A stretch of DNA of 64,000 nucleotides from an uncultured delta proteobacterium (lineage in GTDB: Bacteria; Myxococcota_A; Polyangia; Haliangiales; Haliangiaceae): NCBI GenBank assembly GCA_963764695.1, contig CAVXTW010000015.1, positions 285,845-349,844 on the forward strand, read 5' to 3'. Below are positions 16,485-19,859 of the stretch, piece after piece (within the stretch, counting starts at the first letter, position 1; every line of letters starts with the position of its first letter). The notes beneath the pieces are model-generated. The model made no database searches. It was not told the origin of the DNA and was given only the letters and a program-made list of their open reading frames with translations. Position numbers and translations under genes: made by a program.

Positions 16485-19400
16485 GTGGCCGATCGGGGGA
16501 ACAGCCGGACGGTGGCCACGAAGGCGGGCGACGCTTCGGCCGGCAGCGCCCGGCCACCGCCGTCTCACGCAAAGCCCGAGGCCGCCGACCGCGCAGCCCT
16601 TCAGCGAGCCCTGGGCAACCGGGCCATGGGTCAGCTCGTTGAGACGGCCGCGCTGCCGGGCATCATCGATCCCGACGGTCCGCGCGCACTCAGGACCGCA
16701 GCACTGCTGAGGCGCCTCGGCGCCGACCTGGGCCTCCACGCCGGCGACGTCGAGATCCGGGCCGACGCCGAGGCGGCTCGACGAAAGCACAGCTGCGCCT
16801 GCGGCGGTTCCGCGAGTCTCGGCGGCTCGTGCGAGAGCTGTCAGGCTGCACGCTCCTCAGGCAAGCCGCTCCAGGCCAAGCTGAACATCAACGCCCCCGG
16901 CGATCAGTTCGAGCAAGAAGCGGACCGCGTGGCCGAGCAGGTCCTGCGCATGCCGGACCGAGTGGCTGGCGAAGCGAAGCCGTCCTCCCCTGCGCCAGAG
17001 CTGGTGCAGCGACGGGTCGGCTCCGGCGGCGCAGGCATCGCACAGGCGCCCCCGGTCGTTGACGAGGTGCTGTCGTCACCGGGCCAGCCCCTCGATCCTG
17101 CCACACGCGCGTTCTTCGAACCTCGCTTCGGGCACGACTTCGGGCGCGTGCGTATCCACGCCGATGCTGAGGCCGCAAGATCCGCACAAGCGATCAACGC
17201 CCTGGCGTACACCGTGGGATCGGACATCGTGTTCGGGAACCCACGCAGCTCGCCCGATTCGAGCGACGGACGCCATCTTCTGGCCCACGAGCTCAGCCAT
17301 GTCGTGCAGCAGGCTGATTGGGCAGGAGCGGCCCCACCTCCACTCCAGAGGCAAGCCGGGCCGGAGTCACAAGATTCATCGGCACAAACCGTGGACGACG
17401 ACCTTCTGAGTCAGGCGTCCGACTTTCTTTCTAGCTTTGAAGAGTTCAGAGATCTCGCATCCTCCTACGAGACATCAGACTCATCAGTCGAGTCTCGCCT
17501 CAGGGTAGCTCTCGCCCTCTTCGATGAGCGATGGCGCTCCATGGACTATCACGATGCGTTTGGCGCCAGCGCCTTTTATGGCCTCTTCTCCATGGCGCAG
17601 GAAGCTCTGGCGCTCTTTGAGTTGCGGGTCTCCGAACTGGAGAGCCTCTCTGACACCGCTGACCTTTCTGACATCCGGAACGGGCTCGACCGCCTGGGAC
17701 GCCAGCTGTCCGCGCTGCAGGGAGCCGGTTCGATGCGCGGCCAGGCCCAGCGAACCGAGCTGGCCAGGGAAGCGCGAGCGGCCGAGGCGCTGGCCCTCGA
17801 ACACACGCCGGAGGGGCGGCAGAGCACCGCCCTGACACACCTTCGGACCTACGTCCAGGATCATCCGCCGAACACGGGCAAGGCGGGCGTGAGCGTCTAT
17901 GCGAACCAGCTAGGGCGCTACCTGGTGCACGAACAGAACCTGAGCGGATCCGAGATCCAGGCGGTCCTCGAAACGATAAAAGCCGACGACCCTGACCTCT
18001 TCGATCGTGCCCTGTATCAGGGCGAGCTTCTCGTCTACCTGCTCGAGGAGGGCGTGACCGGGTTGGATGTCGAAAGCCTCCTGTCCGACAGTGGAAGCGA
18101 ATCCGAAGGTGCGCCAGCCCACGTCAGTGGCGCCGGATTCTATGCAGGATTTGATATCTGGTGGCTCGACCAAAGTCAGAAGGATCCTCTCGATCTTCCG
18201 ACTCTGAGATTGCCGAGGCCGGACGAGATAGACGACGTGTTGAAGGGCTTCTATTGGGGGCTCGGAGCGGGCTTCCTCGGGACGTTTGCGGATGCAGCCA
18301 AAGACATCTTGTCAGCGCTGAATCCGACGACGTGGCTGGCCATGTACAAGCTGGTGAGCGAGCAGCTCCCCGACGAGAGGTGGCAGTTCGAGCTGGGACG
18401 GACGACAGCGCTTGCTTTCCACGCCTATCTCAAGGACGTCGCCGACGACAGCCTCAAGGCGGCCATCACGAGATTCGGTCGCGTGATCGGCGCCGCACTC
18501 GCCGAGGTTGCGATGACCTTTCTTGGCGCCAAGTTCGTTGCGTTGGCCGCCAAGGCCGCCCGGGCCACGAAGTGGGGCGCGCCACTGTTCAAATTCGCCG
18601 ACCGCGTGGGCGATGCCCTGCCATGGCGCGACCCACGGGTCGTTGAGAACGACGTCGCGCCGGATTCCGTTCCCGACGAGACACCTGTCAAGAAGGCCGG
18701 TGAATCTTCGAGCACCACGACCTCGTCGGAGGTACCGAGCAGTTTCGAGCTGAGCAACGAACTGGTGACGCCCTCCCAGTCCCTCCAGGAAGCGGCCTAC
18801 ATCGACGCTCATCCGGAGCTGATCGACGTGACGTCGCCGCAGAAACGGGCAAAGGTGGGCGACCACGAGATTGTCGAAATGCGCGACGGCGGGTGCTCAC
18901 GAAATTCCCCGACGCGCAAGTCGGTCCCCTGCCCGGTCTCGTTCGAGGCGCCGCCCGGCAGCGTCACCGTGAAGGCCGATGAGCTCCTTTCGGAGGATGC
19001 GCGTGGTCTCCTGAAGGACCGCTCCGTCGACCCCACTCCCTCAACTCAGGCAGAACTTGACGCCTCGCTGGAACGGACACGCAGTAGCGATGCGGTCGCA
19101 CCAGCAAAGACCACGGATCAGAAGCGGCTCGAACGCGAGGCACTATCACGGGGCCGTATCGCCGACCTGGAGCGCCAGATCGAGAATCTCACGAGGTTGA
19201 GGAACGAATCGGTTAACCAACTAGCTCGATTCAGGGAGGTGCGGGCTGAGATTCTGCGCGCACAACGAGAGGGACGCGCGTATGAAATGCCTGCCGACGT
19301 TCTGGCCATGGACATCGAAACGCCAGCTGAGGTCAATGCGCACATCCTTGGCCTCGGTAGCGAGATCAAGCTTCATAGCAAGTCGATGGCTGCGCCCCAA

Positions 19401-19859
19401 CAGGAACTAAGAATCGAGATCCGCGCCAGTTCGGGAATGACCACAGAACTGGTCAAGCTTCTTCGTTCAAAGACGCCCAGTGACGCTGCCCTGTCGCTTG
19501 TCAAATCCAGATCAGGAGGACGGGACGAGGCCTTTGGCAGCGGCCTTCTGAGAGCGGCCTCTGCCGACCATATTGTTCCGTTTACGGAGATAATAGAAAT
19601 GGACGACTTCGGGGCCTTGGAACTTCACGAGCAAATTGAAGTGCTCAACAATGCTGACAACCTTCAGTATATGAGCGACCTGGCCAACAGCAGTAAGGGC
19701 AACAAGAGATGGCAGGAGTGGGATTCGTCTGCTTACGAGACCGCGAACACTCGTAAAGACCTGAGGAAGGAGATGATCAGGAGGGAGGGCGAGCTGCGTC
19801 AGGCCATCCAGGACGATATCAGCGCCAGGGTTGCCAGGCGCCGTGGCCAAGTAAATTAG
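16485..19859 (+). CDS. eCIS cargo/toxin: N-terminal DUF4157 (HExxH metallopeptidase-like) domain, long variable region, C-terminal HNH-like nuclease motif
   Basis: Canonical DUF4157 block (LQRALGNRA...PLDPATRAFFEPRFGHDFGRVRIHADAEAARSAQAINALAYTVGSDIVFG...HLLAHELSHVVQQ). C-terminus reads ADHIVPF...NLQYMSDLANSSKGNK, an HNH beta-beta-alpha-Me-like pattern. GC is ~55% from ~17340 onward. Confidence 0.85.
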   Translation: MADRGNSRTVATKAGDASAGSARPPPSHAKPEAADRAALQRALGNRAMGQLVETAALPGIIDPDGPRALRTAALLRRLGADLGLHAGDVEIRADAEAARRKHSCACGGSASLGGSCESCQAARSSGKPLQAKLNINAPGDQFEQEADRVAEQVLRMPDRVAGEAKPSSPAPELVQRRVGSGGAGIAQAPPVVDEVLSSPGQPLDPATRAFFEPRFGHDFGRVRIHADAEAARSAQAINALAYTVGSDIVFGNPRSSPDSSDGRHLLAHELSHVVQQADWAGAAPPPLQRQAGPESQDSSAQTVDDDLLSQASDFLSSFEEFRDLASSYETSDSSVESRLRVALALFDERWRSMDYHDAFGASAFYGLFSMAQEALALFELRVSELESLSDTADLSDIRNGLDRLGRQLSALQGAGSMRGQAQRTELAREARAAEALALEHTPEGRQSTALTHLRTYVQDHPPNTGKAGVSVYANQLGRYLVHEQNLSGSEIQAVLETIKADDPDLFDRALYQGELLVYLLEEGVTGLDVESLLSDSGSESEGAPAHVSGAGFYAGFDIWWLDQSQKDPLDLPTLRLPRPDEIDDVLKGFYWGLGAGFLGTFADAAKDILSALNPTTWLAMYKLVSEQLPDERWQFELGRTTALAFHAYLKDVADDSLKAAITRFGRVIGAALAEVAMTFLGAKFVALAAKAARATKWGAPLFKFADRVGDALPWRDPRVVENDVAPDSVPDETPVKKAGESSSTTTSSEVPSSFELSNELVTPSQSLQEAAYIDAHPELIDVTSPQKRAKVGDHEIVEMRDGGCSRNSPTRKSVPCPVSFEAPPGSVTVKADELLSEDARGLLKDRSVDPTPSTQAELDASLERTRSSDAVAPAKTTDQKRLEREALSRGRIADLERQIENLTRLRNESVNQLARFREVRAEILRAQREGRAYEMPADVLAMDIETPAEVNAHILGLGSEIKLHSKSMAAPQQELRIEIRASSGMTTELVKLLRSKTPSDAALSLVKSRSGGRDEAFGSGLLRAASADHIVPFTEIIEMDDFGALELHEQIEVLNNADNLQYMSDLANSSKGNKRWQEWDSSAYETANTRKDLRKEMIRREGELRQAIQDDISARVARRRGQVN

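Follow-up and report, generated by a model that had tools for sequence, protein, structure and literature searches.

The question raised by this locus is what kind of protein is encoded by the last gene of an operon for an extracellular contractile injection system (eCIS) and, if that protein is a toxin, how its producer tolerates it. The operon lies in a stretch of 64,000 nucleotides (hereafter, the window) corresponding to positions 285,845 to 349,844 of contig CAVXTW010000015.1, from an uncultured delta proteobacterium of the Haliangiaceae. All the genes of the operon are on the same strand. The last one extends over 16485..19859 (+), starts with GTG and encodes 1124 aa according to the open reading frame (ORF) listing of the window, exactly the coordinates and length given in an initial annotation. 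The analysis favours, with a probability of about 75%, that its product is a modular effector with a Tox-DHNNK-type HNH nuclease tip, belonging to the eCIS encoded just upstream. A GGAG sequence is located 8 nt 5′ of the GTG, the stop codon of the previous gene lies 16 nt before it, and the G+C content at third codon positions (GC3) exceeds that at second positions (GC2) throughout the gene, indicating that the frame is coding over its full length. Further, contig_53200 of the European Nucleotide Archive (ENA) metagenome ERZ25039530, which is 99.6% identical to window positions 10485-23065, encodes an identical protein (P0001).

Insight into the C-terminal tip came from its relatives. No match was returned when the last 172 aa were used in a word-indexed search for homologues; an exhaustive phmmer search with the 182-aa tail against 1.84 billion cluster representatives (clusters at 50% identity) retrieved 406 representatives at E<=1e-3, 68 of them at E<=1e-10, all matching approximately aa 985-1120. 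The domain ends no more than 10 residues from the protein C-terminus in 140 of the 157 domain hits, and the lengths of the proteins that bear it lie between about 100 and 3452 aa. Among the long relatives, 27 of 39 have an eCIS_core head, whereas the remaining heads include RHS, PAAR, DUF637 and haemagglutinin repeats (Fil_haemagg; CdiA-like). This constant C-terminal position behind varied heads indicates that the domain is an exchangeable polymorphic-toxin tip. Column conservation computed over 151 sequences, whose alignment is ungapped across aa 1025-1082, was highest at D1014 (93%), D1028 (99%), H1029 (100%), N1055 (84%), N1059 (99%), N1068 (99%), S1070 (93%), K1071 (82%, with R in 17%) and W1079 (97%), and the window protein retains all these residues as well as G1072. 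The motifs are DHIVP (1028-1032), NLQYM (1059-1063) and N1068..K1071-G-N-K, and the predicted catalytic core extends from D1028 to K1071 (19566-19697). The initial annotation had recognised these motifs within the last ~90 aa; all of them are present, far beyond chance, and the domain is longer, ~135 aa.

A toxin family with such residues is known. Zhang, Iyer and Aravind (2011; PMC3113570) described the 'DH-NNK' family of HNH/EndoVII fold, with Dickeya Dd586_1447 as type member, and named it after the DH dyad in strand 1 and the asparagines and lysine in the treble-clef core helix, the zinc cysteines having been lost. In a later catalogue (Zhang et al., 2012; PMC3482391), the Tox-DHNNK entry reads 'HNH/EndoVII fold; DH, N, N, N, K' and gives as secretion routes the type II, type VI and type VII secretion systems (T2SS, T6SS, T7SS) and the Photorhabdus virulence cassette (PVC), as immunity proteins Imm-SUKH, Imm-SuFu and Imm33, and as associated protease 'PVC-Metallopeptidase', a domain that corresponds to DUF4157 (Geller et al., 2021; PMC8213781). 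The pattern D1028-H1029, N1055, N1059, N1068, K1071 of the window protein matches the published 'DH, N, N, N, K' exactly.

The immunity partners of the family were surveyed by scanning one genome per species with the fixed-spacing codon pattern D-H-[IV]-V..I..M..N..N.S[KR]G..W. The scan returned 116 loci from Firmicutes, Proteobacteria, Bacteroidota, Acidobacteriota, Myxococcota, Actinomycetota, Planctomycetota and others. A scorable partner, defined as an ORF of 150-300 aa starting from -35 to +70 nt relative to the toxin stop, was present in 94 of them: 68 were SUKH-like, with SMI1_KNR4/SUKH matches, 22 were Imm33-like, with E-values down to 6e-23, and 1 was SUKH-1. The regular presence of SUKH or Imm33 partners suggests that the domain is toxic enough for its producers to need protection. 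B. subtilis was not among the codon-pattern matches, and a possible link to its YeeF-CT/YezG, presumably a metal-dependent deoxyribonuclease (DNase) in which His581 is conserved, is kept as a lead only.

The predicted structure is in agreement with this assignment. Residues 978-1124 were modelled with AlphaFold2 from an alignment of 38 sequences, giving a mean pLDDT (predicted local distance difference test) of 91.2 and a pTM (predicted template modelling score) of 0.86. In the model, a strand (aa 1025-1029) ends in the DH dyad and is followed by a two-helix insert of ~30 residues; N1059 lies just before strand 2 (aa 1060-1064), N1068 and K1071 are in the helix that comes next (aa 1065-1071), and a long C-terminal helix packs behind the core. 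The domain is thereby predicted to have a beta-beta-alpha-metal (treble-clef-derived) fold without zinc cysteines. The structural matches of the model were NbaCas9 (9k32, score 8.1), AceCas9 (8d2k, 8.0), the HNH domain of GeoCas9 (7mpz, 7.8), the HNH protein of phage GVE2 (5h0o, 7.2), EcoKMcrA (6ghc, 6.8), Vibrio endonuclease I (6.8), Gme HNH (6.5), TagI (5.9), Cap5 (5.6/5.3), IscB (5.5/5.3) and the T6SS effector TseN (9j9w, 5.0). A Foldseek search, which had been proposed as a check in the initial annotation, gave Cas9 HNH, McrA and Cap5 as top matches (best E 0.025, probability 0.97); the hits are HNH nucleases as anticipated, but their E-values are weak. Because the residue signature, the fold and the SUKH/Imm33 partners agree, the domain was filed under Tox-DHNNK, an assignment that also lends support to the HNH-type nuclease proposed initially.

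The remainder of the protein has the organisation of an eCIS cargo. Its N-terminal leader is rich in A, R, G, S, P and E and contains LQRALGN (aa 39-45), CxC..CxxC (aa 104-119) and EQEADRVA (aa 143-150), motifs common to the homologues P0002-P0009. Disorder-promoting residues account for 60-78% of aa 1-200, a composition proxy only. In AlgoCIS, the DUF4157-headed cargo proteins Cgo1 and Cgo2 are found in the tube lumen, and their loading depends on a disordered N-terminal domain, DUF4157 being dispensable for it (PROCIS preprint, 2026). By analogy, the leader of the window protein would drive loading into the tube and DUF4157 would be dispensable for this step. The DUF4157 domain (PF13699; E 2.3e-32, 111.5 bits vs a gathering cut-off of 22) is the sole Pfam match in the protein and includes HELSH at aa 268-272 (17286-17300), an HExxH motif. 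The head announced in the initial annotation, including HELSH, is therefore present, but it covers 77 aa in Pfam and not ~270. The middle domain that follows contains one hydrophobic helix (aa 664-690; 18474-18554).

Between the middle domain and the linker lies a conserved Cys/His module of ~65 aa with the motif AAYIDAHPE..GDHEIVE..C.R.S..VPCP. At least 17 DUF4157 proteins have this module, immediately ahead of unrelated C-termini; it could mark a point of recombination, be a site of cleavage or serve as a small adaptor domain. The possibility that it corresponds to Pfam Ntox1 (signature C, C, H, E) was rejected, as hmmscan gave no Ntox1 match, including in seven proteins that contain the module; aa 765-828 have no Pfam match of any kind. 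The linker is 23-29% identical to its homologues vs 35-45% in the flanking domains. P0002-P0009 are alike up to the junction module and then diverge, the C-terminus of P0003 having a weak GIY-YIG Pfam match and that of P0006 looking deaminase-like by eye. As judged from their sequences, these divergent C-termini behind shared heads confirm a cassette-swapping architecture. Base composition changes along the gene: codons 1-200 have a GC3 of ~0.82, which drops to ~0.60-0.65 over the final 270 codons, where the overall GC is 0.53-0.60 vs ~0.70 for the window. This low-GC 3′ end fits a horizontally acquired toxin cassette. The neighbouring genes have a GC of ~0.70 and a GC3 above 0.8, and the toxin gene is lower at 18990-19859 and also at 17235-17535 and 17985-18285.

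If the tip is a nuclease, an immunity gene would be expected next to it, as in most family loci. No plausible ORF was found in the 250 bp after the toxin stop. The initial annotation had stated that no immunity gene follows, and this is upheld by the lack of an ORF in the 3′ flank and of a homologue in the window. The closest homologue of the full architecture, P0007 (identity of 56% for DUF4157, 36% for the middle domain and 45% for the DHNNK domain), has a 225-aa Imm33-like gene that overlaps the toxin stop by 32 nt. An Imm33-like gene also overlaps the toxin stop in the Blastocatellia homologue L020, and L068 has an Imm33-like fragment. In two other DUF4157-headed DHNNK loci (L043 and L052), the next gene is an eCIS structural gene or another DUF4157 gene and immunity is missing. 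The absence of immunity in the window is thus real, and it is not unique. Because P0007 and L020 carry the Imm33-like gene, it looks like the loss of a partner or the acquisition of a cassette without one, which would fit the low-GC 3′ end. The eukaryotic target that had been proposed to explain the absence loses weight for the same reason: the absence holds, and with an Imm33-like gene in the nearest relatives it provides no positive evidence for such a target. According to Zhang et al. and Geller et al. (PMC8213781), many eCIS toxins are found without adjacent immunity genes, and the explanations advanced by these authors are distant targets, expression only at lysis and inactivation by DUF4157. 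In another locus of the family (L086, from a Fusibacter metagenome-assembled genome), a 127-aa ORF located 83 nt past the DHNNK toxin gene is a second, truncated DHNNK module (..YSKLRTKTPN..AEHMVSMKKISEMDGFD) resembling the orphan toxin cassettes typical of polymorphic toxin loci.

The surroundings of the gene are summarised in Table 1. The eCIS context described initially was found as stated: the genes for tube, LysM-tube, spike, baseplate J and P2_I precede the toxin gene and share its strand. After the 1194-aa Baseplate_J gene, candidate ORFs 8525-9502 and 8898-10445, the latter with Baseplate_J, overlap and their boundaries are ambiguous. The two genes at 11791-15666, Tail_P2_I with NHL repeats and the beta-propeller protein, are likely receptor-binding parts of the eCIS and could hint at its target. 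On the other side, the next gene had been called a divergent regulator; a gene is present, but it is convergent, and its status as a regulator has behind it sub-threshold TPR_MalT (tetratricopeptide repeat, TPR) matches. It is followed by an alpha/beta hydrolase gene, and the genes beyond 20110 are unrelated to the eCIS. The ENA contig departs from the window at 23065 (L117 12584), directly after the hydrolase gene, and from there on encodes a sigma-54 activator, a WHD protein and an AAA ATPase; within the common region, 7 indels alter the call of the TPR gene, which has 598 aa in the ENA contig vs 677 aa in the window. Further downstream, the gene for a homologue of the eukaryotic major vault protein (844 aa, 30749-33283, -; MVP_shoulder E 2.6e-24, Vault_3 E 3e-11) immediately follows an RtcB RNA ligase ORF (33288-34106, -) and is transcribed divergently from that of the sigma-54 activator RtcR (34633-36234, +). 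The presence of a vault-protein homologue within an RtcR/RtcB RNA-repair operon is unusual. RtcR also speaks against an actinobacterial origin of the DNA.

Table 1. Features of the eCIS operon, modules of the predicted effector and sequences that follow it (window positions)
Feature	Coordinates	Strand	Basis
gp19 tube (Phage_T4_gp19)	71-907	+	Pfam
DUF6760	914-1477	+	Pfam
CIS_tube + LysM	2210-2896	+	Pfam
Phage_base_V spike	4162-4818	+	Pfam
Baseplate_J, 1194 aa	4941-8525	+	Pfam
Baseplate_J (second)	8898-10445	+	Pfam
Tail_P2_I fused to NHL repeats	11791-13839	+	Pfam
Beta-propeller protein	13858-15666	+	Pfam
268-aa protein without assigned function	15663-16469	+	ORF
N-terminal leader, aa 1-201, candidate loading sequence	16485..17087	+	Sequence, composition, homologues
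eCIS_core / DUF4157 / 'PVC-metallopeptidase', aa 202-278	17088..17318	+	Pfam PF13699
Conserved all-alpha middle domain, aa 296-725	17370..18659	+	Conservation across homologues
Conserved Cys/His junction module, aa ~765-828	18777..18968	+	Recurrence in DUF4157 proteins
Charged/helical linker, poorly conserved, aa 836-984	18990..19436	+	Identity to homologues
Predicted Tox-DHNNK-type HNH/EndoVII-fold nuclease domain, aa 985-1120	19437..19844	+	Family, conservation, model, published signature
3′ flank, 250 bp, no immunity ORF, terminator-like or promoter-like site	19860..20109	.	ORF and site scans
Convergent TPR-protein gene, 677 aa	20110-22143	-	Sub-threshold TPR_MalT matches only

Taken as an effector with a nuclease tip, the protein would be directed into the tube lumen by its leader, carrier and processing functions would fall to the HExxH-bearing DUF4157 domain and to the helical middle part, and the C-terminal 135 residues would be the Tox-DHNNK-type HNH/EndoVII nuclease. 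Once injected into the target cell, this domain would cleave nucleic acid there through one-metal-ion catalysis, DNA being the most probable substrate. The analogy with D839/H840/N854/N863 of the Cas9 HNH domain suggests H1029 as general base, D1028 and N1068 as metal ligands, and N1059 as the residue that braces the beta-hairpin.

Several observations weigh against this interpretation. With regard to the domain, the window protein matches no Pfam HNH model at E<=1, be it the classical HNH (PF01844), HNH_4 or a colicin DNase. Pfam searches on 38 relatives gave 13 weak GmrSD_C matches (best E 8e-6), 2 to HNH_4 (best E 0.22) and single ones to HNH (E 0.25), GH-E and AHH, all very weak, and no homologue has a precomputed Pfam domain across this region. 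No current Pfam model thus matches this family. Searches of the PDB sequences with phmmer and profiles yielded nothing significant, only a sub-threshold alignment with the HNH domain of AceCas9 that covered DHIVP and N..NL..N..KG; alignment of the family profile with a single SpCas9 HNH sequence by hhalign covered only DHIVP (probability 19%) and is not used as evidence. No Foldseek E-value was below 0.025. The comparison with the type member Dd586_1447 and with Pfam DUF1994 was by description only, and position G1041, conserved in 86% of the family, is D in the window protein, as it is in 7 other members. With regard to the context, genes for the AAA+ loader, the sheath and the cap are absent from the window. 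SUKH-like and Imm33-like hidden Markov models found nothing in its six-frame translation even at E<=10, SuFu not having been searched for, and the producer of an active DNase would need some other protection. To our knowledge, there is no nuclease assay for this protein or for any eCIS-borne DHNNK domain.

The lack of an immunity homologue in 64 kb, when the nearest relatives have one overlapping the toxin stop, gives room to an alternative in which the toxin acts on its producer or is tolerated by it, either helping to lyse the cell at particle release or being kept inert by its own N-terminal modules. The same options were proposed by Geller et al. (PMC8213781) for immunity-less eCIS toxins. 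However, the immunity gene may sit elsewhere in the genome, L043 and L052 are likewise without one, and there is no sign of self-targeting in the sequence, so that this alternative is considered unlikely. A further reading starts from the presence of an intact DHNNK nuclease without the immunity gene of its nearest relatives: the DUF4157 head, the middle domain and the junction module might together constitute a built-in safety device that holds the nuclease inactive in the producer until injection has taken place and then frees it, HExxH-dependent cleavage at the junction being one conceivable way. This idea is speculative and quite improbable; if true, eCIS cargo would have a replacement for immunity proteins within its own chain.

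Other alternatives concern the activity of the tip itself. The domain could have an HNH fold and a substrate other than DNA, such as RNA, or be a nickase or a binding module instead of a general DNase. Some His-Me-finger enzymes of the NucA/Serratia type also cut RNA, and the ~30-residue two-helix insert between strands 1 and 2, absent from the matched compact HNH domains, could shift specificity. Against this, DNA is the preferred substrate of practically every characterised HNH-fold nuclease outside the NucA family (Zhang et al., PMC3113570) and the best structural matches are DNA nucleases, making a departure from DNA cleavage very unlikely. A decayed, inactive C-terminus in a protein that is a structural or processing component of the eCIS and not a toxin would fit the missing immunity and the replacement of G1041 by D, and the drop of GC3 at the 3′ end (0.60 vs 0.82) is consistent with foreign DNA. 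Yet every signature residue is intact, the frame is open to the C-terminus typical of the family, and an independent assembly carries the identical protein; decay is therefore hardly credible. The effector with a Tox-DHNNK-type tip remains the preferred reading.

The finding leaves the current understanding unchanged, as the combination of DUF4157 with Tox-DHNNK is already in the 2012 catalogue and the general eCIS architecture was described in 2021. What it contributes is one clean and complete case of an eCIS effector that joins DUF4157 to Tox-DHNNK, and it draws attention to a large nuclease clade (the 406 clusters) that is spread over many phyla, lacks a Pfam model and is reliably found with SUKH-like or Imm33-like partners. 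For annotation purposes, this clade accounts for part of the 'DUF4157-only' eCIS toxins reported without a second domain. The residual interest lies in this missing model, in the apparent loss of the Imm33-like gene and in the middle and junction modules. The immunity-less copy, compared with its Imm33-linked relatives, is a useful start for studying how eCIS cargo stays harmless and is then released, and the conserved middle domain and the junction module are likewise starting points for studies of cargo safety.

Comparison with known systems places the protein among them as follows. The Cas9-type, phage and restriction HNH nucleases matched by the model (9k32, 8d2k, 7mpz, 5h0o, 6ghc) are 14-19% identical to the window domain, which, in contrast to them, lacks zinc-binding cysteines, carries two inserted helices between its strands and continues into a long helix at the C-terminus; they are guided or modification-dependent enzymes, whereas the window domain is predicted to be the tip of a toxin. 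Pne1, the effector of the metamorphosis-associated contractile (MAC) eCIS, has no DUF4157, unlike the window protein, and is set apart by description. Both Pne1 and the nuclease effectors of T6SS, TseN (9j9w) for instance, differ from the window protein in delivery system and target range. The window copy departs from the Tox-DHNNK pattern in being without an adjacent immunity gene. It shares with that family the DH dyad ending strand 1, the Asn/Asn/Asn/Lys pattern, the loss of the treble-clef cysteines, the C-terminal position in the toxin, the Imm-SUKH and Imm33 partners of its relatives, and the occurrence with PVC/eCIS secretion and the PVC-metallopeptidase. In the case of the eCIS-associated toxins, 7 of the 12 validated by Geller et al. 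(PMC8213781) are associated with DUF4157, in the protein or in a nearby gene. These tested toxins and the Cgo proteins carry other effectors (deaminase, ADP-ribosyltransferase and others), whereas the tip of the window protein is a predicted nuclease. Like the toxins of Geller et al. and AlgoCIS Cgo1 and Cgo2, among which immunity is frequently absent, the window protein consists of a leader, a DUF4157 domain, a long linker and a C-terminal effector.

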